Positions 5,445-56,800 of a DNA stretch of 64,000 nucleotides are shown piece after piece. Every line of letters starts with the position of its first letter. Position 1 is the stretch's first letter. The position numbers and the translations under genes are program-made. The notes under the pieces were generated by a model that made no database searches, was not told where the DNA came from, and saw only the letters and a program-made list of their open reading frames with translations. The stretch comes from an uncultured delta proteobacterium (GTDB lineage Bacteria; Desulfobacterota; DSM-4660; Desulfatiglandales; HGW-15). The DNA lies in the NCBI GenBank assembly GCA_963702565.1, contig CAVPDE010000011.1:40918-104917 (forward strand), written 5' to 3'.

Positions 5445-5548
5445 GGGGAAAAAGAGGAGATCACCGCAGAGAACGCTGAGAACGCGTAGAAATGATTGTG
5501 GATGTGGAGGAAGAAGGAAGGAAGAAACAGCCCGGGAACGGCAACCTG

Positions 5549-6868
5549 CTAAGGGGTGGGCGCAAGGTTGAAAGGCTTGGCGTAGCCTGTCATTTCTACA
5601 TAACCGACCCCAGAAACAGGGTTTTGCCCTGAGCGGCCGGAAACCATCACGCTCCCTTCCCAGTAAGTAACTCTTGTGGACTTTTCCGTGATCAGTTCCT
5701 GATCAGGCAAAGCTGGAACGATGGACAGTTCCAGGTTCAGGGGAGTGACCCGAATCCTCCAGCGGGCAGGATAGGTGGCTCCGCTGCGGGGGCTTTTCCA
5801 CCTCTCCAGGACTTCGACCTGGAAATCGCTGTTCGAAAGCCGGATGGCCTCCCCTGAAGCCTTCACGAAAGTGCCGCTTGAAGATGCGCTATTCGGGCCG
5901 GCCTTTTGCCGAAGGAGATAAATCATCAATTCCGTCCGGTCTTCCAACTGCAGGCTGAACCAGTCCCAACCCTCCAGATCGTCTTCTAAGGGAGCGCTGC
6001 TAAATTCGTGATCCATCCAGGCCGTGCCCCTTACAGGAACAGCCGTTCCACGCAGGGTGATCGATCCCTCGGCTTCGAGCCGTGTGGCGGAGTAATAGCA
6101 GCTCGCGCTCTCCCGTCTTTTGCCTTTGATGCTGTATCCTTCTTGACCATGAGCTGCAAGAGGTTTTGCGGCTTTGCAAAGAAGATCGAGAGAGAATTCT
6201 TTTGCCGAAGCATTTAGCCGGTGATGATCGAATTGAATCAGGGTGGACCAGTTCCCGATGAAGACGCGGGTGTCCTCCTGATCCTGAGTCATACCGGCAA
6301 GACCTGCGCCGCTTCGGGCCACGCGTTCGTCAAGGTGAAACCGTTTCGTCTCCAGGTCCGACAGGGCGGCGTGGGCAAGGAAAATATCCTTTGTTCTCCA
6401 TGCCGATGGGTTCTTGGGCCAGGTTTTCTCTGAACCGGGCTCTGCGATCTGGGTGCGGAAAAAGGTCAACTGAAATCCGTAGCGCTTCCCGGATGGAGTG
6501 CCCACATTGCCCGTGTAGTACCACCACTCTGTTCGAAAGTCAGGGTGAGCCCCGTGATCTCTCGGAAAAACAAAATCGCACGGTCCTGTCACGGACCTGA
6601 AGTCCGAGGCGCCGACGGGCGGCGTGAAATTGAGAAGGAAAAAGATGAAACAAGCGCCCAGAGATGCCGGGCTTCGCGCCGCGGCGCCCAAATCCGAAGC
6701 ACCCGCCTTCGCAGCGCCGCTACGGCGGGGCAGGCGAAATCCGAAATTCGAAACAAATTCAAATGACCAAAACACCAATGATTTAAACAAGCTCAAAACC
6801 AAAACAGAAACTTTGCTTAAGAGAATTCCGGTAATTTCAAAACGGGCCGTAAAGAACACTCCTTTCAT
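5549..6868 (-). CDS. AttH-like / CrtC-N-terminal (lipocalin-like) family protein, partner of the upstream ABC exporter
   Basis: The FPRDHGAHPDFRTEWWYYTGN hallmark is present. A signal-peptide-like SLGACFIFFLLNF follows TTG 6689-6691, which I consider the likely true start. Codons 1-59 of the track ORF translate a low-complexity repeat spacer. Confidence 0.8.
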   Translation of the reverse strand: MKGVFFTARFEITGILLSKVSVLVLSLFKSLVFWSFEFVSNFGFRLPRRSGAAKAGASDLGAAARSPASLGACFIFFLLNFTPPVGASDFRSVTGPCDFVFPRDHGAHPDFRTEWWYYTGNVGTPSGKRYGFQLTFFRTQIAEPGSEKTWPKNPSAWRTKDIFLAHAALSDLETKRFHLDERVARSGAGLAGMTQDQEDTRVFIGNWSTLIQFDHHRLNASAKEFSLDLLCKAAKPLAAHGQEGYSIKGKRRESASCYYSATRLEAEGSITLRGTAVPVRGTAWMDHEFSSAPLEDDLEGWDWFSLQLEDRTELMIYLLRQKAGPNSASSSGTFVKASGEAIRLSNSDFQVEVLERWKSPRSGATYPARWRIRVTPLNLELSIVPALPDQELITEKSTRVTYWEGSVMVSGRSGQNPVSGVGYVEMTGYAKPFNLAPTP

Positions 6869-10213: not shown

Positions 10214-11188
10214 TCAAGATTGACCGACCACTTTCCAGCACCGCACCCTGTGGTCATCCCCTACGGGATAGAACTTGATTTCTTCAATCCTGCAGCGATT
10301 TTCGACCAGAGGACATCTTCCCTGGAACTTGCAACCGGGCGGGGGATTGAAGGGGCTCGGCACATCCCCTGCAAGCTCTACAACCTCCAGAGAGCTTTCC
10401 TTTCCAGGAGCGGGCACAGCCGAGAGGAGCGCGAGGGTGTAAGGGTGAAGCGGTCGGTCGAACAATTCTTCAGTGGGTGCATACTCCATGATGTGACCGA
10501 GATACATGACGGCGACCCTGTCACTGATGTAGCTCACGACATGGAGGTCGTGGGAGATGAAAAGGTAACTGAGCCCAAGACGGCTCTGGAGTTCCTTGAG
10601 CAGGTTGATGATTTGGGCTTGGATGGAAACGTCCAGGGCTGAGACCGGTTCGTCGCAAATGATGAGTGAAGGCTCTACGCTGAGCGCCCTCGCAATGCCA
10701 ATCCTCTGCCTCTGACCGCCGCTGAACTCATGGGGATAACGATCCGCGGCAGAAGGAGCCATACCCACCATGTTTAGAAGGTTTTCGACCCGCATCCTTC
10801 GTTCAGCGCGATTCCCGACCCTTATCGTTCTCCGCCCCTCCTCGATCGACTGGCCGACTGTCATCCTGGGATTCAGGGAGCCGAAGGGGTCCTGGAAGAT
10901 GATCTGCATCTCTTTTCTGAGAGGCAACACTTCTTTTTGAGAGAGAGGGGCAATGTCGCGGCCTTTGTAAAAGATAGTCCCTTGATCGGGCTCCAGGAGC
11001 CTCAGGATAAGTCTGCCGATCGTCGATTTCCCGCACCCGCTTTCTCCGACCAGACCGAGGGTCTTGCCCTGATCGATGGCGAAATCAACGCCGTCCACGG
11101 CTTTGACCCAGCCGATGACCTTTTGCAGAAAACCTCGGCGAACGGGGAAATATTTTCGGAGACCTCCGACTTTGAGCATGATGGTCAT
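10214..11188 (-). CDS. Oligopeptide/dipeptide ABC transporter ATP-binding protein (OppF/DppF-type)
   Basis: GESGCGKST, FSGGQRQR, and the C-terminal oligopeptide-transporter extension (HPYT...C..RC). Confidence 0.9.
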   Translation of the reverse strand: MTIMLKVGGLRKYFPVRRGFLQKVIGWVKAVDGVDFAIDQGKTLGLVGESGCGKSTIGRLILRLLEPDQGTIFYKGRDIAPLSQKEVLPLRKEMQIIFQDPFGSLNPRMTVGQSIEEGRRTIRVGNRAERRMRVENLLNMVGMAPSAADRYPHEFSGGQRQRIGIARALSVEPSLIICDEPVSALDVSIQAQIINLLKELQSRLGLSYLFISHDLHVVSYISDRVAVMYLGHIMEYAPTEELFDRPLHPYTLALLSAVPAPGKESSLEVVELAGDVPSPFNPPPGCKFQGRCPLVENRCRIEEIKFYPVGDDHRVRCWKVVGQS

Positions 11189-11345
11189 TAGAAAGTGCCT
11201 AAAGTGAGCTAAAGTGTCTAAAGTTGAAACCCTAAAACCGTAAACACGAAAGCGCGAAAGTAGGAAAGCACGAAAGAAGAGGGGAGTTCTATTGAAAACA
11301 GGTCATTCCTTTTCGTGTTTTCGACCTTTCGTGTCTTTGTGGTTG
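11189..11345. repeat. Composite spacer element: CTAAAGTG-unit array (11194-11224) plus an NNNGAAAG / CTTTCGTG inverted-array hairpin (11245-11342)
   Basis: AGTGCCTAAAGTGAGCTAAAGTGTCTAAAGTT, then CACGAAAG CGCGAAAG TAGGAAAG CACGAAAG, a ~25-nt centre, then CTTTTCGTG TTTTCGAC CTTTCGTG TCTTTGTG. The right arm overlaps the last 13 codons and the stop of the upstream ATPase gene. Confidence 0.85.
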
Positions 11346-12323: not shown

Positions 12324-12364
12324 AGTGCCTAAAGTGTCTAAAGTGAGCTAAAGTGTCTAAAGTT
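12324..12364. repeat. CTAAAGTG-unit array (4 units), left inverted repeat of the 4HB cassette
   Basis: AGTGCCTAAAGTG TCTAAAGTG AGCTAAAGTG TCTAAAGTT. It abuts the ATG of the OppD-type gene. Confidence 0.85.
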
Positions 12365-12387
12365 ATAAAAACAAGAACCAGAAGAGC

Positions 12388-12741
12388 CTATCCAGCTTTC
12401 CCAATGGAAGTGAAAATTGCTAAGAGCTCGCTGCACTCATCGTGGTCAGCCTTCAGTTCCCCCCAAGGGATCCAACCTGTCTCTTTGATGACTTCCAGCC
12501 AATACTGTGTTTCGCTAGCCTCAGTCTCACATATGGAAATCCTATTCTTGAAATCAGCCCTGCTTCTTGCTCTATTTGCTTCACGGTAATTTGCCCCGAT
12601 TGATGTACCGGACCTGGTCATTTGGTTCTTGACGACTCTACCCTCTGGTGTGTTGGGTAGACGTGTTGACAGCCGAATAATCCGGACGCCGAACAGAAGC
12701 GTTCGACGCTCCAATTCCTTTGCGAATTCCTTATTCTTCAT
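12388..12741 (-). CDS. Four-helix-bundle protein (23S rRNA intervening-sequence protein / S23p family, Avd-related)
   Basis: 117 aa. SGTSIGANYREANRARSRADF and ETQYWLE are characteristic of this family. It is inserted between the permease and ATPase genes of the peptide ABC operon. Confidence 0.8.
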   Translation of the reverse strand: MKNKEFAKELERRTLLFGVRIIRLSTRLPNTPEGRVVKNQMTRSGTSIGANYREANRARSRADFKNRISICETEASETQYWLEVIKETGWIPWGELKADHDECSELLAIFTSIGKAG

Positions 12742-12755
12742 GTTTTGACCTTCAA

Positions 12756-12829
12756 TTTTAGCTCACTTTAGCCTCCGGCCTGTAGGGCCTACGGCCCGGA
12801 GGGACACTTTAGTTCACTTTAGGCACTTC
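12756..12829. repeat. Reverse-oriented CACTTTAG units split by a GC-rich hairpin, right inverted repeat of the 4HB cassette
   Basis: TTTTAGCTCACTTTAG (12756-12771), the GC hairpin CCTCCGGCCTGTAGGGCCTACGGCCCGGAGG, then ACACTTTAGTTCACTTTAGGCACTT (12804-12828). Confidence 0.85.
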
Positions 12830-14011: not shown

Positions 14012-14135
14012 CATGAAAGCGCGAAAAGCAGAAAGCACGAAAGAAGAAGAGGGTTCTGCTGACAAAAGGTCATTCTTTTTCGTGCTTTTATCCTTTCGTG
14101 TTTTCGTGGTTCTCTTCTTGGCATTTTAGGCATTT
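14012..14135. repeat. Second copy of the NNNGAAAG / CTTTCGTG inverted-array hairpin (14012-14109) plus a degenerate reverse CATTTTAGGCA unit
   Basis: CATGAAAG CGCGAAAAG CAGAAAG CACGAAAG ... CTTTTTCGTG CTTTTATC CTTTCGTG TTTTCGTG. It aligns over its full length with 11245-11342, roughly four-fifths identical by eye. Confidence 0.85.
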
Positions 14136-15095: not shown

Positions 15096-15100
15096 AACAA

Positions 15101-15231
15101 ATGCCTAAAGGGAGAAGAAGTGTCTAAAGTGAACTAAAGTGCCTAAAGTTAAAAACCGAGTGACGAGTCAAGCAAACAAGATACAACGGACAACGGACCA
15201 CTGACTGCGGACAACCGACAACGGACAACCT
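15101..15231. repeat. CTAAAGTG-unit array (15101-15150) plus seven direct heptamers ACAACGG-type (15183-15231)
   Basis: ATGCCTAAAGGGAGAAGAAGTGTCTAAAGTGAACTAAAGTGCCTAAAGTT, then ACAACGG ACAACGG ACCACTG ACTGCGG ACAACCG ACAACGG ACAACCT. Confidence 0.85.
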
Positions 15232-15265
15232 GTTAAAAGCTAGAAACCAAAGCTTCCATCTGAAA

Positions 15266-17416: not shown

Positions 17417-17420
17417 AAGA

Positions 17421-17680
17421 AGTGCCTAAAGGGAGAAGAAATGTCTAAAGTGCCTAAAATAGAAAACCAAAACCACAACCACGAAAACACGAAACTATGA
17501 AAACACGAAAAAAAGAAATGCCTAAAGTGAGAAAACCAGTGACAAGTGACAAGTAACAAGTGACAAAACGAGCGAAAAATAAGAACAACTAAAAAAGGAC
17601 TACTTGTCACTCGTTACTTGTGACTTAAAGATCAACGGACAACTGACCACTGATAACGGTGAACCGTGAACGATGAGCAG
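17421..17680. repeat. 260-bp composite element upstream of the SBP gene: CTAAAGTG units, a CACGAAAA half-array, a GTGACAA/TTGTCAC hairpin and seven ANAACNG heptamers
   Basis: Modules: 17421-17460 units; 17477-17515 CACGAAAA x3; 17538-17572 AGTGACAAGTGACAAGTAACAAGTGACAA facing 17600-17626 CTACTTGTCACTCGTTACTTGTGACT (about 20 of 22 complementary); 17632-17680 TCAACGG ACAACTG ACCACTG ATAACGG TGAACCG TGAACGA TGAGCAG. Confidence 0.85.
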
Positions 17681-17757
17681 CCTTTGGCTCTCAGTCTATC
17701 AGAAAATTGAAATCATGCAATTGGTAAAGTCAGGGAATTGTGGTATGAGGCTCTGTT

Positions 17758-18720
17758 ATGTTTGAAGTTCTTGAGACAGCCTGGAATGTGGCCGCAAAGA
17801 GCCGCCATGTCCGGATCAACCATGAGGCGCTGGAGAAATTCAGTCAGGAATTGGCGGAGGGCGGTCTTCCCGGACCGAACTGGGATGCGGAGCATCACTT
17901 TAAGGGAAGCGATGAAGAGACGGTCGCCTATCTCCTTGCGGTGGACACCGTCAATTTCTGTTTCTGGCCTCCTCCTGGGCAGAAGAAATGGGAAATCTTG
18001 TATAAAGGGAAACCCTATTCGGGATACTACGGACTGGCTGTCTCGTTCAAGAAAGCGCTTGAGTCAGGGATTCCTCTCGGCGACTCCTCTTTCCTGGCTG
18101 CTCTAACCTTAAAGCAACTCGATGACATTTTCTCAGGAAAAGGGGTTTTGCAGCTTCTGGACGAACGCCTGGCAAACCTGCGGGAGCTGGGCAGGGTGCT
18201 CCTCAGCGAATACAGGGGGCAGGCTTGCGAATTGGTGGCAGCCGCCGGGGGTTCGGCAATCAGGCTGGTGCAGATGCTTGGCAGGGATTTCCCCTCTTTC
18301 CGCGACCAGGCGACCTACGAAGGCGAGAGCGTGTTCTTTTATAAAAGAGCCCAGTTATTTGCCGCTGACCTGCACGGAACCCTTGGCGGCAAAGGGCTGG
18401 GGAGTTTCACCGACATGAAAGAACTCACGGCCTTTGCAGACTACAAGCTGCCTCAGGTGCTTCGCCACGTTGGGGTGTTCGAATACGCTCCTGTCCTTAT
18501 GGAGAAGGTGGACCGCATGATATACCTCGAGCCGGGGAGCGAGGAAGAGGTCGAGGTCCGGGCCAACACGATCTGGGCCGTGGAGCTCCTTCGCCGGGAG
18601 ATGAATCGTCTCGGGAAAGAGGTTCATGCGAGCGAGATCGATTGGCTTCTGTGGAATCTGGGGCAAGACGACCGATTCAGAGCAAAGCCGTACCATCGGA
18701 CAGTGACGATATTCTACTGA
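17758..18720 (+). CDS. Queuosine-salvage family protein (DUF2419 / Qng1-like)
   Basis: DTVNFCFWP, FFYKRAQLFAADLHG and LTAFADYKLPQVLR match the DUF2419 pattern as I remember it. Confidence 0.6.
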   Translation: MFEVLETAWNVAAKSRHVRINHEALEKFSQELAEGGLPGPNWDAEHHFKGSDEETVAYLLAVDTVNFCFWPPPGQKKWEILYKGKPYSGYYGLAVSFKKALESGIPLGDSSFLAALTLKQLDDIFSGKGVLQLLDERLANLRELGRVLLSEYRGQACELVAAAGGSAIRLVQMLGRDFPSFRDQATYEGESVFFYKRAQLFAADLHGTLGGKGLGSFTDMKELTAFADYKLPQVLRHVGVFEYAPVLMEKVDRMIYLEPGSEEEVEVRANTIWAVELLRREMNRLGKEVHASEIDWLLWNLGQDDRFRAKPYHRTVTIFY

Positions 18721-18722
18721 GC

Positions 18723-18948
18723 GCCTAAAGGGAGAAGAAGTGTCTAAAGTGAACTACGCGCAGCGCAGGCGCTTGCGCCGCGTGAAGTGCCCAAAGTTGG
18801 AAGAAAGGTAAGAACAACCACGAAAACACGAAAAGAGGAAAGCACGAAAAAAGAAGAGAGGTGGCACGGGCAAGCTGTGCTTGCCCGTGGTATAGAGTAG
18901 TGGACGGGAGGAAGAAAACACGGATAAGCAAGGCTTGTCCGTGCCACC
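18723..18948. repeat. Composite element in the convergent gap: CTAAAGTG units, a GC hairpin, a CACGAAAA half-array and two related 11-bp hairpins
   Basis: Modules: 18723-18755 units; 18756-18785 GC hairpin; 18826-18870 CACGAAAA units; CACGGGCAAGC-TGT-GCTTGCCCGTG (18873-18897); CACGGATAAGC-AAG-GCTTGTCCGTG (18920-18943). Confidence 0.8.
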
Positions 18949-28471: not shown

Positions 28472-28538
28472 ATCCGTGATAAGGGGTCCTTTTCAACTAA
28501 GCGTTCGAATGCAGTCCTGTGGCCGTGGCACCATGAAT

Positions 28539-28613
28539 AAGCAGTATGAAGTAGGCCGTATGCAGTAAGGAGGAAGCTCGCGGGCTAACTGCCTACTGCT
28601 TACTGCGTACTCC
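28539..28613. repeat. Inverted arrays of GCAGTA-type / TACTGC-type heptamer units
   Basis: AAGCAGTATGAAGTAGGCCGTATGCAGTAAGGAGG, the centre AAGCTCGCGGGCT, then AACTGCCTACTGCTTACTGCGTACTCC. Confidence 0.7.
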
Positions 28614-28675
28614 CTATTGGAGCACTGCGGATCAGCCCTAGCTCAAATGTTTCTAAACATCATGCAGTGAGATTC

Positions 28676-30292
28676 TCACCGGGGACTCCAAAGAGGCTGG
28701 TGAAAGTCTTGTTCCATGGGGGGCTGCTTGAGCGGCCATTCGGCCCGTGCCAGAGAAGAAGCCAGCCCAGGGATGACATCGAGAAGTTCACCGGCCAGGA
28801 TGCCGGACTGTCCCATGTCCTCGGAAAGCCGATCGGCAGCCAGCCCGTGAAGGTAGGCCCCGGCAGCAGCAGCTTTGGCCGGGGGCCATCCTCTTGCGAG
28901 AAACCCGCCGATGAGCCCTGTCAGCACATCTCCGGAACCGCCGCTGGAGAGAGCAGGATTCCCTGTGGGGTTGATGTGGATCTGCCCCTCGGGCTCAGCA
29001 ATGACCGTACGAGCCCCCTTCAAGACAAGACAGCACCTATGCTTCTGAGCAAAAGCTTCTGCGACGCCGATTCGATCGGCTTGAACCTCGGAGTTGCTGA
29101 TCCCGGCCAGCCTTGCCATTTCACCAGGGTGAGGGGTCAGGACCACTCGGCCCCTGCACTTGTCCAGGACGCCCAGATCAGAGGAAAGGGCATTCAATCC
29201 GTCCGCGTCAATCACCATGGGTAAAGGGCACCCGGCCACGATTCTCCTCACGAGTAAGCTTGTCTCCGCGTGAGTCGAAAGCCCGGGCCCGATAGCCACC
29301 GCTGTCTTGCCCTTCATAAGTCTGAAGATTTCTTTCTCCGCTTCCAGGGAGAGACTGGATTCCGCAGTCTCGGGCAGGGGGAAGGTCATGGCCTCGGTCA
29401 GCTTGTTTTCCAGAATGGGATTGAGACTTCGAGGGATGCCGAGAGTCACGAGGCCTGCTCCGGCCCTGAGAGCGCCGAGGGAGGTGAGGGTTGCGGCTCC
29501 TGTTTTCCCTGTCGATCCTGCGAGAACGAGCAGGTGACCCCTGTTGCCCTTGTGGATGTCCGGTTTTTCTGAAGCGATGAGATCATGGAAATCCCCGGCT
29601 CCGATCAAACGGTAACGGCCGGGGATTCGTTCGACTACCGCGTCAGGGATTCCGATGTCGATTTGAACCAGTCGGCCCACCAGACCGGCACCCGGGAAAA
29701 CCAGTTGCCCAACCTTGGGGAGACCGAAGGTGATAGTCAGGTCGGCCTGGACAGCGACCCCCATGACCTGCCCGGTGTCGGCATTCAAGCCGGACGGGAT
29801 ATCGATCGCTGTCACGGGTTTGTTCGCCCTGTTGAGGTCGTCTATAACCCGGGCATAGAACCCTCGGACCGATGAATTGAGCCCTGTGCCCAGAAGGCCG
29901 TCGATGATGAAGTCGCAATCTTTAAGCAGGCGCCGCTGCTTTTTCCATTGCGCCTCAGAGGTCACTTCCAGAAGGTCCAGGCCCATCCGCCTGAGGATTT
30001 GGAGATTGATGAGGGCATCCCCCGCTATTTTACTGAATTCCGCAAGAACCAGGACCGTCACCTTGAGCCCGGCTTCGGAGAGAACCCTCGCCATCACGTA
30101 ACCGTCCCCACCGTTGTTCCCTCGACCGCAGAGAATGAGCACTCGGGAATGAGGGGGTGGAGCAAAGTGAGCCAGAAACACCCTGCTGGCTCCCCTGGCA
30201 GCGTTTTCCATGAGGACCACACCGGGGATGCCGATTTCCTCTATCGTGAGGCGGTCCATCTCTTGCATTTCAGAGGCTTTGACCAATCTCAT
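28676..30292 (-). CDS. nnr: Bifunctional NAD(P)H-hydrate repair enzyme (epimerase + ADP-dependent dehydratase)
   Basis: The YjeF-N pattern (GRGNNGGDG) and the YjeF-C carbohydrate-kinase pattern (GGSGDVLTG) are both present. The start was moved to ATG 30290-30292. Confidence 0.9.
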   Translation of the reverse strand: MRLVKASEMQEMDRLTIEEIGIPGVVLMENAARGASRVFLAHFAPPPHSRVLILCGRGNNGGDGYVMARVLSEAGLKVTVLVLAEFSKIAGDALINLQILRRMGLDLLEVTSEAQWKKQRRLLKDCDFIIDGLLGTGLNSSVRGFYARVIDDLNRANKPVTAIDIPSGLNADTGQVMGVAVQADLTITFGLPKVGQLVFPGAGLVGRLVQIDIGIPDAVVERIPGRYRLIGAGDFHDLIASEKPDIHKGNRGHLLVLAGSTGKTGAATLTSLGALRAGAGLVTLGIPRSLNPILENKLTEAMTFPLPETAESSLSLEAEKEIFRLMKGKTAVAIGPGLSTHAETSLLVRRIVAGCPLPMVIDADGLNALSSDLGVLDKCRGRVVLTPHPGEMARLAGISNSEVQADRIGVAEAFAQKHRCCLVLKGARTVIAEPEGQIHINPTGNPALSSGGSGDVLTGLIGGFLARGWPPAKAAAAGAYLHGLAADRLSEDMGQSGILAGELLDVIPGLASSLARAEWPLKQPPMEQDFHQPLWSPR

Positions 30293-30671
30293 CGTTTCCC
30301 TCAAGGACCACCACAGCCATACCGTAGCGGCCTTCATCGGAAAGGCTCAGGTGAAAACGGGTGATCTGTTTTTCACGGCAGATCTCCGAGGATCTGCCCT
30401 GAAGTCTCAGGGCGGGCCGCCCTCCAGGGTGGTGGAAGACCTCAATGTCCCGCCACCGGATCCCTCTCCGCATTCCAAGCCCGATGGCTTTGGAAAAGGC
30501 CTCCTTGGCTGCGAATCGAAGAGCCAAAGGAGAGGCCGGGTACGCTCTTTTGAAGCAAAACTCCGCTTCCTGGTCCGTGAAAACTCTCTTCACGAAACGA
30601 TCTCCCCACCTCTGGAGCACCGTTTCCAGGCGCTGGATATTCACGAGATCAATGCCCACACCAAAGATCAT
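30270..30671 (-). CDS. acpS: Holo-[acyl-carrier-protein] synthase
   Basis: MIFGVGIDLV, FAAKEAFSKA and LSLSDE. Confidence 0.9.
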   Translation of the reverse strand: MIFGVGIDLVNIQRLETVLQRWGDRFVKRVFTDQEAEFCFKRAYPASPLALRFAAKEAFSKAIGLGMRRGIRWRDIEVFHHPGGRPALRLQGRSSEICREKQITRFHLSLSDEGRYGMAVVVLEGNDEIGQSL

Positions 30672-30677
30672 TGAAGA

Positions 30678-30882
30678 AGTGCCTAAAGTGTACTAAAGTG
30701 TCTAAAATGCCTAAAGTTGAAAAAGAGAATACAGAATCAAAAGAATGGAGTGTTGGAGTAGTGGAGTGATGGAGTATTGGGTTTAAACCAGTACTCCAGT
30801 GCTCCAACGCTCCATTACTCCATGCTATTAACAGCAACGGACAACTGACTATTGATCACGGACTCCAGGCAACAAGCAACCT
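30678..30882. repeat. Composite spacer element: CTAAAGTG units, a TGGAGTNN / NNACTCCA inverted arrays hairpin and seven heptamers
   Basis: Modules: 30678-30718 units; 30745-30780 ATGGAGTG TTGGAGTA GTGGAGTG ATGGAGTA TTGG; centre GTTTAAA; 30788-30823 CCAGTACT CCAGTGCT CCAACGCT CCATTACT CCAT; 30834-30882 GCAACGG ACAACTG ACTATTG ATCACGG ACTCCAG GCAACAA GCAACCT. The element ends one nucleotide before the pdxJ stop codon. Confidence 0.85.
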
Positions 30883-30883
30883 G

Positions 30884-31603
30884 CTAAAAACCCTTCACCA
30901 GTTCCACCATCTCCCTGACGGCCCGGTCAAAGCCGACGTAGATCGCTCTGGCCACAATGCTGTGCCCGATGCTGTACTCCTCGACCTTGGGCAGGGCTTT
31001 GAATCTCTGCACGTTGACGTAGTTGAGACCATGTCCTGCGCTGATGCCCAAGTCAACTCTCGCGGCGGTTTCGGCAGCCCTTGCAATCCTGTCGAATTGC
31101 CTGCGGGCCTCTGACTCGGATCGGGACTCGGCATAGTGCCCCGTGTGTATCTCCACAATATCAGCTCCAATAGCGTGACTGACTTCAATCTGCGCCGGAT
31201 CAGGGTCCACGAAGAGGCTCACTTCAATCCCTTTCTGCTGGAGCTGACGAATCACCTTCTTGTAGAGACCTGCCTTGGCTTTGACGTCCAACCCGCCCTC
31301 TGTGGTGAGTTCTTCTCTTTTCTCAGGGACCAGGGTGACGAGATCCGGTTGGATCCTGCGCGCAATCCGAACCATTTCAGAGGTTGCCGCCATTTCCAGG
31401 TTCAGTTTGGTCTTGACGACCTGGCGAAGCAGGAGCACATCTCTGTCCTGAATGTGACGCCGATCCTCTCTCAGGTGACAGATGATTCCAACGGCACCGG
31501 CCAGCTCTGCGATTCCTGCTGCTATGACCGGGTCAGGCTCGGTAATCCCCCTTGCCTGCCGAACCGTAGCCACATGATCCACATTGACGGCTAAACGCGC
31601 CAT
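30884..31603 (-). CDS. pdxJ: Pyridoxine 5'-phosphate synthase
   Basis: LAVNVDHVATVRQARG, HLREDRRHI and IEIHTG. Confidence 0.95.
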   Translation of the reverse strand: MARLAVNVDHVATVRQARGITEPDPVIAAGIAELAGAVGIICHLREDRRHIQDRDVLLLRQVVKTKLNLEMAATSEMVRIARRIQPDLVTLVPEKREELTTEGGLDVKAKAGLYKKVIRQLQQKGIEVSLFVDPDPAQIEVSHAIGADIVEIHTGHYAESRSESEARRQFDRIARAAETAARVDLGISAGHGLNYVNVQRFKALPKVEEYSIGHSIVARAIYVGFDRAVREMVELVKGF

Positions 31604-31654
31604 AGCTTCCCTCCCGTCTTGAAAAGCCCCCTCTCCTCGTGCTTTGAAAGAAAA

Positions 31655-32095
31655 TCAATCCTCCATCACAAGGGTCATGAGCCTGTTTTCTTCCCTTCTC
31701 ATCCGAAGTGCTTGTTTCGAAGAACCCTCGTGATCATGCCCCAGCAAATGGAGAATGCCGTGGATCAGGAGCCGGTCCACGGTGCGCTGGAGAGGTTCCC
31801 CCAACTCCCGGGATTCTGAAAGGGCTGTGTCCATGGAGATGACCACATCCCCGAGCATGCCTGACGGGAGGTGAGGGGAGGAGCCGGAGAGCATGGGAAA
31901 TGCCAGGACGTTGGTCGGGCCCTGTCTCTTGAGGTACTGTTGATTGAGCTCCGCGATCCTTTTATCATCGGTGAACAGGACGCTCAGCTCACCCTCATGA
32001 AAGTCCAAGTCTTCTAAGAGTCTCCTCAACTTCCGCTTTATCGTCCGGCTTGCGAGTCCCGGAATCTTCCGCTGGAACGTGATCTGAACTTCCAT
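31655..32095 (-). CDS. ybeY: rRNA maturation endoribonuclease YbeY
   Basis: HGILHLLGHDHE metal-binding motif. It overlaps the upstream gene's 3' end by about 100 nt if ATG 32095 is used. Confidence 0.9.
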   Translation of the reverse strand: MEVQITFQRKIPGLASRTIKRKLRRLLEDLDFHEGELSVLFTDDKRIAELNQQYLKRQGPTNVLAFPMLSGSSPHLPSGMLGDVVISMDTALSESRELGEPLQRTVDRLLIHGILHLLGHDHEGSSKQALRMRREENRLMTLVMED

Positions 32096-35680: not shown

Positions 35681-35782
35681 ACTTAGAATAAAAATTAATA
35701 TTTTAAAATAAAAAACATTATTTTAACTAATTTTATAATATGTCATTAAGTAATAATATAATAGAATTCAATATTATAAATT
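35681..35782. other. ~100-bp extremely AT-rich island in otherwise GC-rich DNA
   Basis: ACTTAGAATAAAAATTAATATTTTAAAATAAAAAACATTATTTTAACTAATTTTATAATATGTCATTAAGTAATAATATAATAGAATTCAATATTATAAATT. By eye it has very few G/C. Confidence 0.9.
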
Positions 35783-35809
35783 CCGCTAGCACAAAAGCAT
35801 GGAGGGTCA

Positions 35810-50995: not shown

Positions 50996-51018
50996 CAGAC
51001 TCACACTCCTTCTCCAAG

Positions 51019-51104
51019 TTGGAGTAATGGAGTACTGGAGTAGTGGAGTGTTGGGAATCGCAGTTCTGTTCACTCCATTACTCCATTACTCCATCATTCC
51101 ATCC
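51019..51104. repeat. TGGAGTNN / NNACTCCA-type inverted arrays (8-nt period)
   Basis: TTGGAGTA ATGGAGTA CTGGAGTA GTGGAGTG TTGGG, a centre, then CACT CCATTACT CCATTACT CCATCATT CCATCC. Confidence 0.85.
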
Positions 51105-51107
51105 TTA

Positions 51108-52142
51108 TTATCCGTTCATCAATTCAAATACTTTTCGAATATCGATGTTGACGGGGCAGAACTGGACACATCGCCCGCACCCGACGCATGCTGGCCCGTT
51201 CCCGTACTTGTCCACGTAATACTTCAGCTTGTGCATAAACCGCTGCCTGACCCTCTGAAGCTTCTTGTCCCGGGGATTGTGGCCGGACCCATGAAGGGTG
51301 AAGAGCGGGAACATGCAGGCATCCCAATTCCGGATCCTGTCCCCTTCTTTTCCTGACACTTCGTCCTGGATGTCAAAGCACCAGCAGGTGGGACAGAGAA
51401 ATGTGCAGGTTCCGCAGTTGATGCACGCAAAAGAGACTCTCTCCCAGAAAGGGGCGTTGAAAAGCTCATTGACCGCTTTCTCCCGGAGGTGATCCACGTG
51501 CACCCTGGAGGAGTTTTTTTTCTCCGCTGCTTTTGGAAGGCTTAGCGCCTTCTTGAAGAGGGAGTCGGCTGCCTCTGAACCCAGCTCGACCTTTTCCAGG
51601 AAAGCCTCGCCTTTGGGCGTGAGGCTTCTCACCAGGAAGCGGTCGCCCAGGTCGACCATGAGCGCATCCAGACCTTTCTCGCTGAAGGGGCCGCTTCCCA
51701 CAGAGGTGCAGAAGCAGGAGGCGCAAGGGTCGTTGCATCCGAAGCCGACAAGGGTGGTGGTTTCCATGCGGCGGACCCACCACGGGTCCTGGAACTGAGG
51801 ATTGTCGAAATTGATCCTCACCAACTCAAAGGCAAAAGCGTCGCAAGGCCTTATTCCCACGATCACCTGGGGAGAAAAGTCCTTCGGTGCCTCCTTGACG
51901 ACGTGCGCGTCCCCTTTGCTCTCGTCCAGAGTGTACTCGAACATCCGCTCTGACTGCGGAAGCATAACCGATTTCGGGGAAAGCCTGGTGTTCTGGAATT
52001 CAAAATTGGGTTTGCGGCCTGTTTCCAGAAGCCTGAAGTTGTGGAAGTCCCCCTCCTTCACAGGGACATACACTTTGTAAACGCCTTGCAGCCTTTGTAG
52101 TGCCTCAGTCCATTGTTCCTTGCTGAATGATTTTTTAAGCAT
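51108..52142 (-). CDS. 4Fe-4S dicluster protein (AsrA / sulfhydrogenase-beta / FlxB-like)
   Basis: CINCGTCTFLCPTCWCFD and CVGCGRCVQFCP. 344 aa, paired with the AsrB-like subunit. Confidence 0.75.
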   Translation of the reverse strand: MLKKSFSKEQWTEALQRLQGVYKVYVPVKEGDFHNFRLLETGRKPNFEFQNTRLSPKSVMLPQSERMFEYTLDESKGDAHVVKEAPKDFSPQVIVGIRPCDAFAFELVRINFDNPQFQDPWWVRRMETTTLVGFGCNDPCASCFCTSVGSGPFSEKGLDALMVDLGDRFLVRSLTPKGEAFLEKVELGSEAADSLFKKALSLPKAAEKKNSSRVHVDHLREKAVNELFNAPFWERVSFACINCGTCTFLCPTCWCFDIQDEVSGKEGDRIRNWDACMFPLFTLHGSGHNPRDKKLQRVRQRFMHKLKYYVDKYGNGPACVGCGRCVQFCPVNIDIRKVFELMNG

Positions 52143-52154
52143 AGCATGAATCCT

Positions 52155-52264
52155 TAGGAGTATTGAATGCTGGAGTAATGGAGTACTGGAGCGCTGGAGT
52201 AATGGTGGAATAAAGAAAAAGAGGATACCCAGTACTCCAAGACTCCATCACACCATCACTCCAT
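52155..52264. repeat. TGGAGTNN / NNACTCCA-type inverted arrays (third copy)
   Basis: TAGGAGTA TTGAATG CTGGAGTA ATGGAGTA CTGGAGCG CTGGAGTA ATGGTGGA, a centre, then CCCAGTACT CCAAGACT CCATCACA CCATCACT CCAT. Confidence 0.85.
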
Positions 52265-53215
52265 TTATTTGACAAACTCGTTATAGTCGTCCACTCGATA
52301 AACATCCAGAGGCGGCCGCTGATCCATGCGGGTCCCTGCCTCCCAGCCGAAGAGCTCAAAAGCATCCTTGTTCAGCTTCTTGGTGAACTGCCTCATGGAG
52401 ATCCCCACGGGGCAAACCCTCTCACAAGCACCGCAGTCCGTGCACCTCCCGGCACAATGATAAGCCCGCAAAAAATGAAAGGTCATGGTATCCACGGGAT
52501 CCGTGCTTTTCCCTACCCACTGGGGCCGCGACTCATCGACGAAGCAAGTGGGGCAGTAGCAGAGCGGGCAAACGTTTCGGCATGCGTAGCACCGTAGGCA
52601 GGATGAAATAAGCTGGGTGAAAAACTTCCGCTTTTCTTCGGGGCTCTTCTTTTCCAACACCTCAATGTCTTTGAAGGGGTTGACGCCCTCCTGTTCAGGA
52701 ACCGGGTCAGCGACCATCTCGTCGTATTCGACGGGATTTCGATGAAGGCAAGTGGCGCAATTGGTCCTCAAGAAATCCTTTTTCTTAAAGGTCTCCTGAA
52801 AACCGTTTCCGCTCACCGTGAAGGAGTCATTGGTTTCAGTGACATCGAGAATCTCCTTGTTCCCCATCGTTCTCTTCACCGCTCGGTGGTCGATCATGCC
52901 GGTGCAGGGAAGGCCCACGATGTAGAGCTGTTCCCGCTTAATCTGGTTTTCGATGATGTGGGTCACGATGTTCCTGGAATTGCATCCATTGGCGACAATC
53001 CCGACGCGGTCGGTCCGCTTGGTCAGGTAATTGCAGAGGTTCAGACCGCAGTGGCTGTCCCAGTGAAGCAAGTCGACCTCCGCAGGATTCTTGACCAGCA
53101 CTGGTTCATTCATCATGGGCACTGAGCCCTTCCGGTAGCCGATGAAAACGTCGACCGTTCCCTTTTCCAGGAGCTTTCGAGCGATGTCTCTGATTTTCTG
53201 GGTATACTCAAGCAT
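52265..53215 (-). CDS. Fe-S cluster-binding oxidoreductase subunit (FlxC-like)
   Basis: CLRCYACRNVCPLCYCPTC and CTDCGACERVCP. The ATG at 53213-53215 overlaps the mvhD stop (TGATG). Confidence 0.65.
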   Translation of the reverse strand: MLEYTQKIRDIARKLLEKGTVDVFIGYRKGSVPMMNEPVLVKNPAEVDLLHWDSHCGLNLCNYLTKRTDRVGIVANGCNSRNIVTHIIENQIKREQLYIVGLPCTGMIDHRAVKRTMGNKEILDVTETNDSFTVSGNGFQETFKKKDFLRTNCATCLHRNPVEYDEMVADPVPEQEGVNPFKDIEVLEKKSPEEKRKFFTQLISSCLRCYACRNVCPLCYCPTCFVDESRPQWVGKSTDPVDTMTFHFLRAYHCAGRCTDCGACERVCPVGISMRQFTKKLNKDAFELFGWEAGTRMDQRPPLDVYRVDDYNEFVK

Positions 53216-53658: not shown

Positions 53659-53732
53659 CGCACTCGAATAATATCACCAAAAGTTTTCTTCCCGTCGGCA
53701 CTTGGTTGAATCTCTTCAATCGGAAGTCGCTT

Positions 53733-53813
53733 GTTGCAGGTCGCAGGTCGCAAAAGCAAATCCAGAAAATCCTTTCCATCACCACGGGCAACGTGCAACG
53801 CGCCACCTGCAAC
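53733..53813. repeat. Heptamer-period inverted arrays in the hdrA-mvhD spacer
   Basis: GTTGCAGGTC GCAGGTC GCAAAAG, a centre, then GCAACGT GCAACGC GCCACCT GCAAC. GTTGCAGGT (53733-53741) and ACCTGCAAC (53805-53813) are perfect complements. Confidence 0.75.
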
Positions 53814-56800
53814 TTACATTTCGTTAATCATCGCCATGATCTGCCCTTCCTCGAATCCCTTGAGGTTGAGCGCTCCTGAGCGGCAGGAAGCCACGCAAAG
53901 ACCGCAGCCTTTGCAGAGCACCGGGTTGACCTCCGCCTTACCCGCGAAAGGCCCCTTCTGAATAAAAGAGGGCGCCGAGTAGGGGCAAATCTCCACACAG
54001 ACCCCGCAGCTGCTGCAGACGGCAGGGGTCGTGTAGGCGACCATGCCGCTCACAGAGATAGTCTTTCTGGCCAGCAGAGTGACCGCTCTGGAGGCGGCTG
54101 CCTGGGCGTGGGCCACCGACTCATCGATGGGCTTTGGATAGTGCGCCATACCGCAAAGGAAGACCCCGTCCGTGGCAAACTGGGATGGGCCCAGCTTGGC
54201 GTGAGCCTCCACAAAGAACCCGTCCTCGCTCACGGGGACCTTGAAGAACTGGGCAAGCTTTTCGTCCTTGTAGGGAACGATGGCCGAGGCCAGGGCAACC
54301 AAACCCGCCTTGATCAGGATGGGCCGCTGGAGCACATGATCCATCACCTCGATCTCAAGTCCCTCTGTACCGGCGGAGACTTTCGGTTTCTGAGAAACAG
54401 AGAACCGGATGAAGAGAATCCCCGCTTCTCGCGCCTTCCTGTAAAGGAGTTCCCGCTCGCCGTAGGTTCGGATGTCCCGGTTGAGAATGTAAACATCCAT
54501 GGCTGGGTTCAGCTCTTTGAGGTGGAGGGCGCTTTCAATGGAGTGGGTGCAGCAGACTCTCGAACAATAGGGTCTTTGCGGTTCGCGCGAGCCCACGCAC
54601 TGGATGAACACGGCGGTTTGAACCTTCTTGAGCGATGGGTCGTGATCGATGAATCTGCGGTCCAACTCCTGGTGAGTCACCACCAGGGGATTTTTCCCAT
54701 AAAGGTACTCCTCGGGCTTGTACTCACAGCATCCCGTGGCCAGCACGGCGATTCCGTGGTCAATGGTTCCCTGGAGGGTACTGGACTGAAACGTGGACTT
54801 GAAGTTTCCGACGAACCCTTCGACCTGGGTCAGCTCGGCTCCGAGGTGGACGCGGATGTTTTTGTCACCCTGGACCGACTGCACAAGGTCCCCCAGGTTT
54901 TTCTGGATATCTTCTCCCTGCCACGTCCTGTAAAGGTTTAGGGCCTGACCGCCGAGCACGCGGGATTTTTCGATGATGTCCACCTCATAGCCCTGGTCGC
55001 TCAAGGTCTTTGCCGCCACCATCCCGGAGATGCCGCCACCGACCACGAGCGCCCGCTGGTTGATATCCAGGACAGCCTCAGGGAGGGATTCCATGAGAGC
55101 CACCTTGGCCACGGCCATGCGCACGAGGTCTTTGGCTTTGTTCGTGGCCTCCTGAGGATTGTCTTTGTGGACCCAGGAGTCCTGGTTGCGGATGTTGGTC
55201 ATCTCGAAGAGGTACTTGTTCAGCCCGGCGTTGACAAGGGTTTCCTGAAAGAGAGGCTCGTGGGTCTTGGGCGTGCAGGCCGCCACCACGATCCGGTTGA
55301 GGGCGTTCGCCCTGATCACCTGGGCCATGGTGTCCTGAGTGTCCTGCGAGCAGGAGTAGAGGTTGTCCGCTACGTACTCGACGTAGGGAAGCTTCTTCGC
55401 ATAGTCGCGCACAGCCGGTACATCCACCACGCCGCCGATGTTGATGCCGCAATTGCAGACAAAGACGCCGATGCGAGGCCGCTCCCCCCGAATGTCTATC
55501 TGCTCGGGCACCTCTTTCGCTTTGGTCAGCGTATTGCGCGCGCTACTCAAAAGGCCTCCTGCTTGGGCAGCCGCCGAACTCGCTTCGATCACGGACTGGG
55601 GAATGTCCTTGGGTCCCTGGAAAGCCCCGCACACGTAAATGCCTTCCCTGGAGGTAGCCACTGGAGCAAAAGAACCGGTGCGGCAGAATTGCGATTCGGT
55701 GAGGTCGATGTCGAGCTTGTCGGCCAATTCCACGACCTCCGGCGAGGTCTCCATCCCTACGGAAAGGACGACCATGTCAAAAGCCTCTTGGCGCAATTCA
55801 CCGTTTTCAGTGGCATACTTGACGCTGAGATCTTCGGACTGCGAGACGGCCTCCACGGAGTGAACGCGGGACCGGATGAAGCGAACGCCGTGTTTTTCCC
55901 GGGCCGCGTCATAGTACCTTTCGAACTCCTTTCCGTGGGTCCTCATGTCCATGTAGAAGATGGCGCAATCGAGATCAGATCCTGAATGCTCCTTGGCGAT
56001 GACCGCCTCTTTGATGGCATACATGCAACAGACGGAAGAACAATAGGGATGGTCACACTGATGCATGTCCCTGGACCCGACGCACTGGAGCCACGCGATT
56101 TTCTTGGGCTCCTTGTGATCGGACATGCGGGCGAGATGCCCCAGGGTAGGACCGGACGCTGAAAGGATCCTCTCGAACTCCATGGAGGTGACCACGTTCG
56201 GAAGCTTGGAGTAGCTGTAAGTATCGTACTTGGAGGGGTCAAAGGGCTGAAAGCCCGGTGCAAGGATGATGGCCCCTACTTGTACCGTCGTCCTTTTTTC
56301 CTGGTCATCAAATTTGATAGCTCCTGAGGAACAGAATTTCTCGCAAGCTTTGCACTTACCTTTTTCGAAGAAAATGCAGTTATCTTTGTCGATGGCATAT
56401 TTCAGAGGCACGGCCTGGGCGTAAGGGACATAAATGGCTTTCCGCTTGATCAAGCCTTCATTGTAATCGTCTTCAACCTTTTTGGGACATTTCTCAGCGC
56501 AGGTACCGCAACCAATACACTTCTCAGGGTCCACGTATCGCGGATGCTGCAGAATGTCCACTTGTAGATTTCCGGGCTCTCCCCTGACATTTAGAACTTC
56601 TGAAAGCGTAAGCAATTCGATGTTTAGGTGCCGGCCGACCTCGACCAGTTTGGGGGAGATAATTCACATCGCACAATCATTAGTGGGAAACGTCTTATCC
56701 AGTTGGGCCATGACCCCGCCTACAGACGGGGACTTCTCAACGAGGTAGACGTGGTAGCCGGAATCTGCCAGGTCAAGCGAGGCTTGCATCCCTGCAATAC

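Follow-up and report, generated by a model that had tools for sequence, protein, structure and literature searches.

What occupies the 212-base gap between two housekeeping genes, pdxJ and acpS, of an uncultured Desulfobacterota bacterium, and how did it come to be there? This question was addressed in a 64,000-nucleotide stretch of contig CAVPDE010000011.1 (positions 40,918 to 104,917), hereafter called the window. Array modules of the window and the genes next to them lie on the minus strand unless stated otherwise. Both genes were taken from the list of open reading frames (ORFs): pdxJ (30884-31603; 239 aa, TAG stop codon at 30884-30886) by a Pfam PdxJ match of an identical protein, and acpS (30270-30671; 133 aa, MIFGVGIDLV...) by a Pfam ACPS match. 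The spacer between them covers 30672-30883. Its best explanation, held with somewhat more trust than doubt, is that it is a gene-less mosaic of short-tandem-repeat arrays, kin to the arms of small operon-riding cassettes of the intervening-sequence type.

Repeat modules of the pdxJ-acpS spacer

Read on the sense strand, the spacer consists of a heptamer array (module H), an octamer hairpin (P), a T-rich linker (U) and a series of 9-mers (S), followed by the acpS ATG. Module H (30834-30882) comprises seven degenerate heptamers of the NNGTTGY type and begins 1 nt past the pdxJ stop codon; from 30882 down to 30834, the TAG and a single C are followed by AGGTTGC, TTGTTGC, CTGGAGT, CCGTGAT, CAATAGT, CAGTTGT and CCGTTGC. 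A better-preserved paralog of this array occurs at 15183-15229 and an expanded version in strain L005. A 10-nt linker, identified by reading the sequence (TGTTAATAGC, 30824-30833), leads to module P (30745-30823), a beaded hairpin in which (TGGAGTNN)x4.5 and (NNACTCCA)x4.5 are inverted around a loop. Its 5' arm, from 30823, reads A-TGGAGTAA-TGGAGCGT-TGGAGCAC-TGGAGTAC-TGG and runs into the loop TTTAAA, after which the 3' arm, CCA-ATACTCCA-TCACTCCA-CTACTCCA-ACACTCCA-T, ends at 30745. Module U (30719-30744; TCTTTTGATTCTGTATTCTCTTTTTC) is a short copy of a (TTCTGTN)n array that is longer in strains L005 and L094. Module S (30678-30718) holds four CACTTTAGN units, in the order AACTTTAGG-CATTTTAGA-CACTTTAGTA-CACTTTAGG-CACT, one of which (CATTTTAG) deviates; among strains its copy number ranges from one to five. 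The last S unit is separated from the acpS ATG by TCTTCA (30672-30677), and no GGAG, GAGG or AGGA was found within 25 nt of the ATG. Small ORFs within the spacer (for instance one of 62 aa at 30649-30837) were dismissed, as they cross modules that are swapped among strains.

An earlier note on this DNA had described a three-module repeat element that fills the spacer. Repeat statistics, together with recurrence of the same order at other sites, confirmed that a modular element with recurring module order occupies the spacer, and the coordinates and unit counts given in that note were correct. Its statement that all 212 bp are modules was too broad, as the three named modules span 169 of the 212 nt; the 26-nt linker proved to be a fourth, the (TTCTGTN)n copy.

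The repeat arrays of the spacer far exceed chance. The octamer arms showed 70-71% identity at lag 8 (z 4.4-5.9), the 9-mer array 59% at lag 9 (z 4.4) and the heptamer array 57% at lag 7 (z 4.7), a value reached by 0.24% of 49-nt windows. Tandem Repeats Finder called the octamer and 9-mer arrays, with periods of 8 and 9; at score 30 it did not call the heptamer array. Across the window, TGGAG-N3-TGGAG-N3-TGGAG occurred nine times against 0.00 expected from shuffled sequences, and ACTTTAG-N3-ACTTTAG six times against 0.02.

Module P was predicted to fold at -37.6 kcal/mol (z -7.1) into helices of 5-7 bp with 2x2 or 3x3 loops between them, so that its complementary flanks are able to form a stem. 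All eight inverted pairs tested in the window gave predicted folds of -23 to -46 kcal/mol (z -3.7 to -7.4). The octamer arms had been described as complementary in their cores only. This was true for the pdxJ-acpS copy but not for two further TGGAGT/ACTCCA hairpins at 51016-51106 (dG -43.5) and 52168-52266 (dG -45.7), where the 'variable' positions are mostly paired and mismatches are mostly single nucleotides. Pairing of these positions in the paralogs indicates that the 3x3 loops of the pdxJ-acpS copy reflect decay rather than the design of the family.

Strain turnover, the ancestral junction and the start of acpS

An identical PdxJ protein was present on eight contigs. Six of these were fetched, with coding DNA 98.8-99.9% identical to the window, and the five that extend into the spacer carried five different versions of it. 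The window combines H, the TGGAGT hairpin, U and four S units, whereas L003 has the same arrangement with one S unit and L002 a window-type hairpin with one S unit and one CTTCTTCTGACTTTAGGCAC unit. In L001, H is followed by an AGTGACA/TGTCACT hairpin and four to five S units, and L005 contains a long heptamer array, CTGTCTT units and three S units, with no hairpin. The hairpin module of L001 could be aligned over about 165 nt, loop included, with the window's own copy at 17500-17700, which indicates that modules are exchanged between dispersed paralogs. Other spacers behaved similarly: the spacer between a solute-binding protein (SBP) gene and a permease gene of the opp operon had at least four module compositions among strains with identical permease, and the nnr-tsaE spacer was replaced in L001 and L002. 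Given this natural allele series, no module of the pdxJ-acpS spacer is needed for acpS or for viability. Nor is the sequence of the units what this locus needs, since L001 and L005 differ there and other spacers use unrelated units. Arrays of this kind cause breaks in metagenome assemblies and serve as hypervariable strain markers.

Strain-level turnover bears directly on a proposed role as regulatory RNA, in which the TGGAG/CUCCA array offers Shine-Dalgarno-like or CsrA-type GGA(G) motifs, titrates 30S subunits or CsrA/RsmA and thereby controls acpS. Four to five GGAG motifs are indeed arranged at 8-nt spacing opposite CUCC motifs, and acpS lacks a Shine-Dalgarno sequence of its own. However, the GGAG cores are base-paired in the predicted minimum-free-energy structure instead of being exposed in loops, and they are not conserved: L001 has AGTGACA/TGTCACT in their place and L005 has no hairpin, although both encode the identical PdxJ. 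Moreover, the same hairpin type occurs at the unrelated junctions 51016-51106 and 52168-52266, and equivalent places hold hairpins of wholly different units. Swapping of the module between strains leaves no basis for a locus-specific role of the GGAG cores as Shine-Dalgarno or CsrA sites, as had been suggested from the array alone, and this role is very improbable.

The ancestral state of the junction was examined in a PdxJ scan with one genome per species, which yielded 80 Desulfobacterota relatives, metagenome-assembled genomes (MAGs), with a best identity of 79%; the window's own species was not among the representatives. Junction length was taken from the last pdxJ sense codon to the acpS ATG, with the stop codon counted. 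In 26 of the 46 relatives that had both genes, the junction measured at most 10 nt, with many TAATG or TGAAATG overlaps. Spacers in other relatives were longer (60-415 nt) and contained analogous inverted arrays of CACGGAGG, GGTTTAMG, GTTGCGA and GATTGAA; the closest relatives also had CACTTTAG arrays right ahead of the acpS ATG. The comparison, which the earlier note had proposed as a check, thus revealed no repeat-free spacer of equal length, an outcome that favours the note's reading of a real modular element. Judging from these relatives, the pdxJ-acpS spacer is an insertion into a junction that was originally a few nucleotides long.

Fusion of the element to the pdxJ stop codon had been taken as a sign that it supplies or targets stop codons. 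The junction sequence CAACCTGCTA does recur at 5542, at the stop of a CrtC/lipocalin gene (5549-6868). However, the stop codon of PdxJ stands at its ancestral position (...K-G/D-F-stop in relatives), and a supply of the codon by the element is not supported. As the ancestral junction measured only 2-10 nt, any insertion must abut both the stop and the start codon. Heptamer arrays started 0-1 nt after a stop codon in four of about seven cases, a small sample, and their stop-proximal start remains a small-sample oddity. Stop-adjacent heptamer sites were noted at 5532-5551, 15231-15245, 30876-30886 and 53811-53816 of the window and near position 1189 of contig L207. The array at 15233 follows TAA-C, which is in frame with the real stop codon of the preceding gene and lies 11 codons past it.

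At the other end of the spacer, the S array was consistently placed. In about 15 distinct cases from the window and near-identical strains, the last TTTAGG stood 5-11 nt ahead of an ATG, and the S arrays in this set terminated in TTTAGGCAC. None of the five window genes behind an S array had GGAG, GAGG or AGGA within 25 nt of the ATG, whereas many other genes have such motifs. Distances from CACTTTAG array to next gene were broader among metagenome contigs (at least 120). A tight ancestral junction, together with an S array that lacks a Shine-Dalgarno sequence, indicates that the ancestral stop/start coupling of acpS to pdxJ is lost. Translation of acpS would now begin 10 nt downstream of the last UAGG, at a start codon with no canonical Shine-Dalgarno sequence. 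Since direct repeats cannot pair with themselves and each unit contains TAG, direct arrays would give rise to an unstructured, pyrimidine-rich leader with TAG stop codons, from which acpS presumably initiates. The first S unit, TTAACTTTA, is similar to the 'epsilon' enhancer of phage T7 gene 10; a literature search with the string was uninformative, and the similarity carries no weight.

A conserved leader containing a CACTTTAG array was also common to 18 metagenome contigs (L095, L097, L113, L120, L125, L130, L131, L146, L159, L161-L163, L175, L176, L179, L181, L204 and L213) from a different organism group. Its order is other tandem arrays (AACCATTTACC, GAATTTAGAATTGAG and similar), ATCGAGAATCCAACTTTAG, the CACTTTAG array, a CTCTACAnnTGTAGAG hairpin and ATGCAAAACAAACCCAAT; the ORF behind it is rich in AAACCCAAT repeats, and the leader had no match in Rfam.

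Alternatively, the modules might punctuate transcription, with hairpin and T-rich tract as an intrinsic terminator of pdxJ and the CACTTTAG array as a promoter for a short-leader or leaderless acpS mRNA. A T-rich run does follow several hairpins and precedes every S array, and the absence of a Shine-Dalgarno sequence would suit a leaderless mRNA. In contrast, a consensus scan of 30200-31700 gave zero terminator-like sites and no minus-strand promoter. The stems are A/U-rich and interrupted, and at pdxJ-acpS the T runs do not adjoin the stem, whereas an intrinsic terminator has a G+C-rich stem with an immediate U tract. By eye, the S units contain no TAnnnT -10 hexamer and their GG-N8-GC spacing does not fit the sigma-54 consensus; sigma-70 and sigma-54 readings of the CACTTTAG array were rejected on hexamer content and spacing. 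Finally, the last S unit lies 6-11 nt from the ATG, unlike the spacing at leaderless starts. Punctuation therefore has little probability. A search of the window and 20 array-bearing loci against Rfam at gathering thresholds returned tRNAs only.

An array family and its gene-carrying cassettes

The modules of the pdxJ-acpS spacer belong to a larger family. About 13 of the approximately 45 intergenic regions in the window hold such arrays, and coding DNA holds none. The unit types are NNGTTGY heptamers, TGGAGTNN/NNACTCCA, CACGAAAN/NTTTCGTG, AGTGACA/TGTCACT, GCAGTAN, GTTGCAN, TTCTGTN and CACTTTAGN. Where several types are combined, their order is constant, with heptamers after the stop codon, inverted pairs in mid-spacer and CACTTTAG last at the ATG; strains L001, L005 and L094 show it, as do 15096-15265 and 17417-17757 in the window. 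The SBP-permease spacer (15118-15233) combines an H array (15183-15233) with an S array (15118-15149). The composite spacer at 17417-17690 contains an H array, an AGTGACA/TGTCACT hairpin (17535-17645), a TTTCGTG solo arm (17480-17518) and S units that reach to the ATG at 17416. A second TTTCGTG solo arm (11245-11276) is followed by an S array (11192-11224), together spanning 11192-11276, 10 nt ahead of the ATG at 11188. The nnr-tsaE spacer has a GCAGTAN/NTACTGC hairpin (28535-28625), replaced by other modules in L001 and L002, and inverted GTTGCAN/NTGCAAC heptamer arrays (53730-53813) lie directly past a TAA stop.

Short units repeated in both orientations resemble iterons, which would fit arrays that act on double-stranded DNA as binding sites for a nucleoid, replication or recombination protein; a ACTCCAAC iteron-like region was also found in the phage-labelled contigs L252 and L279. 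However, at least eight unrelated unit families share one 64-kb window, repeat periods of 7-9 bp do not keep phase with the DNA helix, and the placement of the arrays strictly follows gene direction and the stop and start codons. A role at the DNA level is accordingly hard to credit. In the two viral-labelled contigs (L252, 6040-6500; L279, 1920-2380), ACTCCAAC/GTTGGAGT units stand in both orientations in about 400 nt of A+T-rich non-coding DNA, a region that looks like an iteron-type replication origin and is unlike the hairpin family.

Several further features were noted near these arrays. Two paralogous blocks, in each of which a TTTCGTG solo arm precedes a CACTTTAG array with CTTCTTCTCCCTTTAGGC at its end, lie at 17417-17520 and 18721-18860 and flank a plus-strand Q_salvage gene (17758-18720; Pfam); the second block abuts the stop codon of this gene and not its start codon. 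This arrangement suggests an array-mediated duplication or rearrangement. An exact-protein look-up of the gene at 51108-52142, between the two TGGAGT hairpins, gave no record. The HdrA-like flavoprotein/ferredoxin gene upstream of the GTTGCAN hairpin (53814 to about 56950) does not begin at the TTG listed as its start but extends further upstream, across an in-frame TGA near 56660. This TGA stands in the motif TNDCAM-[TGA]-IISPKL, the part upstream of it matches FAD/NAD Rossmann domains and the codon probably specifies selenocysteine. The 440-nt spacer upstream of the phoH-like/7TM-HD/ybeY/pdxJ gene string contains an A+T-rich island (35683-35783) in which units of 20 nt and 15 nt are repeated in tandem (TTAAAATAAAAAACAATATT x2.2); this island may be a promoter or regulatory region.

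A gene-carrying relative of the spacer modules was found in the opp operon (12324-12829), in the order 5' arm, gene, 3' arm. The gene (12388-12741; 117 aa) encodes a four-helix-bundle protein that matches TIGR02436 and PF05635, the '23S rRNA-intervening sequence protein' family (23S_rRNA_IVP). It is flanked by (CTAAAGTG)n upstream (12742-12829) and (CACTTTAG)x4 downstream (12324-12363), the latter abutting the ATG of the next opp gene. The S array at pdxJ-acpS matches the 3' arm of such cassettes in unit, orientation and terminal TTTAGGCAC. The 5' arm encloses a G+C-rich palindrome, CCCTCCGGGCCGTAGGCCCTACAGGCCGGAGG (12770-12801), which also occurs between reversed S units in L093 (about 1115-1150) and may be a separate REP-like element.

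Homologs of this gene were flanked by inverted CTAAAGTG/CACTTTAG arrays at eight further junctions, five from a scan for S arrays and three picked by protein homology only. In a second cassette type, GxxExxY genes (PDDEXK_3 nuclease fold; PF13366) stand between (CACGAAA)n and (TTTCGTG)n at five junctions, namely the opp site in sister strains and four others. Matched inverted array pairs thus surrounded the two gene families at 13 of the 13 Desulfobacterota junctions examined. Three exact tandem CACTTTAG units were present in at least 120 metagenome contigs; six of these loci (797 kb) contained four-helix-bundle homologs, against none in 819 kb of PdxJ-relative loci, where hidden Markov models built from close homologs likewise revealed no further four-helix-bundle or GxxExxY genes. 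Both protein families are very large: searches for each returned more than 7,900 matches at E <= 1e-10 among 8,000 candidates scored.

Beyond the Desulfobacterota, arms differ in unit and form. In Bacteroidota, the arms of GxxExxY genes consist of other units (CACAGAG(G)A/TCTCTGTG; on plasmids, CACAGAGA in Bernardetia and CACAGAGGA in Bacteroides). A Gemmatirosa copy adjoins a CGCGGAT/ATCCGCG hairpin, a simple inverted repeat accompanies the gene in Treponema and direct repeats are present at two other copies. Insertions of GxxExxY genes were also seen at fabD|fabG and between radA and a FAD-dependent gene (L311, a Sphingomonas plasmid; L309, a Bacteroides plasmid), each gene co-directional with its neighbours; the fabD|fabG copy has a 5' array only (CGCGAAGG-type) and its stop codon lies 2 nt ahead of the fabG ATG. 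In L195 (10200-11050, minus strand), a four-helix-bundle gene between methylmalonyl-CoA mutase subunit genes retains its CTAAAGTG/CACTTTAG arms and is interrupted by an inserted GIY-YIG gene (Pfam E 2.9e-13), a nested selfish element.

Occupied and empty states of the same junction link the cassettes to gene-less arrays. The oppC|oppD junction was found in three states: with the four-helix-bundle gene (window, 12324-12829), with a GxxExxY gene (sister strains, for example L087, 6240-6850) and with neither (L093, 2560-2860). The sister strains show 97-99% nucleotide identity, and their CACGAAA/TTTCGTG arms are nested in degenerate S units; both gene alleles also occupy the same site in related species (L294 and L227). 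At the Fer4|oxidoreductase junction, the window has the TGGAGT hairpin at 51016-51106, whereas L301, whose flanking genes show 71% and 87% amino-acid identity to those of the window, has a four-helix-bundle cassette. The gene-less CACGAAA/TTTCGTG hairpin at 14012-14112, a deletion derivative of the GxxExxY cassette, has the arms and loop ends of the loaded cassette, and in a gene-less copy in L227 (3040-3200) the start of the gene is still present, with its Shine-Dalgarno sequence, ATG and first codons. Of 96 pairs of inverted arrays, 52 had their arms 0-200 nt apart, which are gene-less hairpins, and a separate group with gaps of 395-447 nt encloses a gene. All cassette genes with visible neighbours are co-directional with them.

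Origin of the mosaic and comparison with known repeat classes

The favoured origin starts from the two cassette types that are common in this lineage (Desulfobacterota), with four-helix-bundle genes in (CTAAAGTG)n/(CACTTTAG)n and GxxExxY genes in (CACGAAA)n/(TTTCGTG)n. Internal deletion of the gene would leave an 'empty' hairpin, and loss of one arm a solo direct array. The pdxJ-acpS spacer would then represent one complete arm pair, the TGGAGT/ACTCCA hairpin, with three solo arrays, the last of which is CACTTTAG x4. Array copy number presumably changes via replication slippage, and whole modules are presumably swapped between dispersed copies by ectopic recombination or gene conversion, so that near-identical strains carry different mosaics. 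We infer the recombination mechanism, the RNA processing and the effect on translation. Membership of the TGGAGT, heptamer and TTCTGTN arrays in the family is based on shared architecture, interchangeability and shared insertion sites.

Neutral debris of replication slippage would be another source: simple-sequence repeats that grow locally in tolerant non-coding DNA, with no link to cassettes and no function, their order and position being what selection spares. Copy number and presence vary extremely between strains with 99% identical coding DNA, distribution among relatives is sporadic with most of them lacking a spacer, and long simple-sequence repeats of 5-11 nt are described as phylogenetically patchy in the account of Mrazek 2007 given in PMC4679880. 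Local growth does not account for the occurrence of the same units at many loci, including those of organisms with PdxJ only 58-70% identical, nor for modules at different loci that share non-repetitive loops and flanks and are hence paralogs. The matched inverted pairs around two gene families, without exception among the Desulfobacterota junctions, and the fixed terminal unit and placement of S arrays also speak against it, and slippage alone is considered a rather unlikely origin.

Several observations weigh against derivation from cassettes. No gene-carrying version of the TGGAGT/ACTCCA, heptamer or TTCTGTN arrays was found in 2 Mb of loci and 47 viral-labelled contigs; the latter held empty TGGAGT hairpins only (L251, L284 and L289) or the unrelated iteron-like region (L252 and L279). 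A generic search for inverted array pairs in all loci examined likewise returned loaded pairs only for the CACTTTAG and CACGAAA families. No target-site duplication is visible on the pdxJ or the acpS side, and no defined termini were identified for the composite. Gene direction is confounded with replication direction in the window, S-unit arrays in the opposite orientation do occur (12742-12829), and many CACTTTAG arrays in the metagenome sample are not near a start codon. The variation in copy number and presence between near-identical strains means that no module is required for acpS and, as most relatives lack a spacer, any function may be nil. In addition, the pdxJ-acpS hairpin, with a 3x3 internal loop every 5 bp, is a poor substrate for RNase III.

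The element was filed as a variant of simple-sequence repeats, of intervening-sequence-type selfish elements and of mosaic intergenic elements, and as a member of no single one of these classes. A literature search revealed no link of GxxExxY or 23S_rRNA_IVP genes to tandem-repeat arms and no such repeats in Desulfobacterota, which is not proof of novelty.

Heterocystous cyanobacteria have STRR with the units CCCCAGT, TTGGTCA and CAACAGT. The units here (NNGTTGY, TGGAGTNN, CACTTTAGN) are different, and the relatives are Desulfobacterota MAGs. As far as the description of STRR and long simple-sequence repeats in PMC4679880 (after Mrazek 2007) goes, both systems are tandem, intergenic, strain-variable and sporadic and include heptamers, but ordered modules, inverted pairs and dedicated gene partners for two unit families, besides units and host phylum, set the present arrays apart. 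Tandem units of 5-11 nt beyond chance length, typical of long simple-sequence repeats, are present at pdxJ-acpS, and copy number is polymorphic among close strains with identical PdxJ (one to five CACTTTAG units and a variable heptamer count). The direct TAACTGA repeats that precede start codons in marine Beggiatoaceae (MacGregor 2015, PMC4679880) are similar in being short tandem units (two to six copies) in forward orientation, a few nucleotides before the start of housekeeping genes that have no recognisable Shine-Dalgarno sequence, as is the CACTTTAG array in the window and strains. Their phylogenetic distribution is also patchy, with a unit common to distant taxa (PMC4679880). In contrast, TAACTGA itself is absent from the arrays described here: the unit there has 7 nt and that of CACTTTAGN arrays 9-10 nt, the phylum is another, and the array here forms one of two inverted arms that enclose a four-helix-bundle gene and is combined with other modules, whereas the TAACTGA paper gives a single inverted case and no link to a gene (PMC4679880).

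Intervening sequences of 23S rRNA with an S23p ORF, as in Coxiella burnetii (PMC4990558), share more of the architecture: they are small selfish elements whose complementary flanks form a stem that may enclose a PF05635 ORF, they have ORF-less and decaying versions and they rely on host transcription (PMC4990558). The arrays here differ in that they lie in mRNA at junctions of protein-coding genes, not in helix 25 or 45 of 23S rRNA (there is no rRNA in the window), and in that tandem units of 7-9 nt, with variable positions, make up their stems. A PF05635 or PF13366 ORF is enclosed in the CACTTTAG and CACGAAA families, whereas the hairpin loop at pdxJ-acpS measures 6-8 nt and this copy carries no ORF. 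RNase III excision has been demonstrated in Coxiella (PMC4990558) and would, for the arm-pair hairpins here, be an analogy. By this analogy, or by that of mRNA protection by E. coli REP/BIME, the arm-pair hairpin probably acts as a processing or stability element on the transcript.

Among mosaic intergenic elements, E. coli REP/BIME and pneumococcal BOX were reportedly described by Gilson, Higgins and Newbury and, in 1992, by Martin. REP/BIME classically follow the binding-protein genes of ABC transporters and consist of imperfect palindromes of 35-40 nt with a conserved head, associated with a RAYT gene. Likenesses are the modular mosaics in operons, RNA hairpins, variable module number and, here, the opp operon setting. 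Differences are the palindrome or box unit of 35-45 nt, as opposed to a 7-9-nt tandem unit, and the absence here of a REP-like GTAG head; no Y1/RAYT transposase was noticed among the annotated genes of the window, which was not searched exhaustively. In the manner of miniature inverted-repeat transposable elements, gene-less hairpins retain the terminal arms and loop ends of a gene-carrying parent. Such deletion derivatives were seen for CACGAAA/TTTCGTG, whereas TGGAGT/ACTCCA has no known parent; the parent here has no recognisable transposase, target-site duplications are lacking, also at pdxJ-acpS, and the termini are tandem arrays instead of unique terminal inverted repeats.

A bolder proposal, which is tentative and more doubtful than the mosaic itself, is that the 7-9-nt arrays are recognition or homing sites of the proteins that they flank, with CACGAAA for the GxxExxY nuclease of PD-(D/E)XK fold and CACTTTAG for the four-helix-bundle protein, so that the cassettes are operon-riding mobile elements with a unit-to-protein code and derivatives reshuffled in trans. 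If true, other unit families would have protein partners of their own, and the cassettes would form an undescribed class of mobile gene cassettes. Hairpins and solo arrays, the pdxJ-acpS mosaic included, would then be non-autonomous derivatives, dependent on trans-acting cutting, copying and reshuffling. Such activity would drive the swapping of modules between strains and would leave start-proximal arrays in place of Shine-Dalgarno sequences.

For decades, STRR, Beggiatoa TAACTGA and long simple-sequence repeats have been listed with neither an origin nor a function assigned to them, and two unit families here gain a genetic partner. As gene-less derivatives are traceable to gene-carrying parents, these unexplained repeats acquire a testable mobile-element hypothesis, which also offers a handle on two very large uncharacterised protein families, GxxExxY and four-helix-bundle. 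For the organism, the locus illustrates that tightly coupled gene junctions can be colonised and quickly remodelled while the flanking genes are kept, and that genes start behind arrays without a Shine-Dalgarno sequence.

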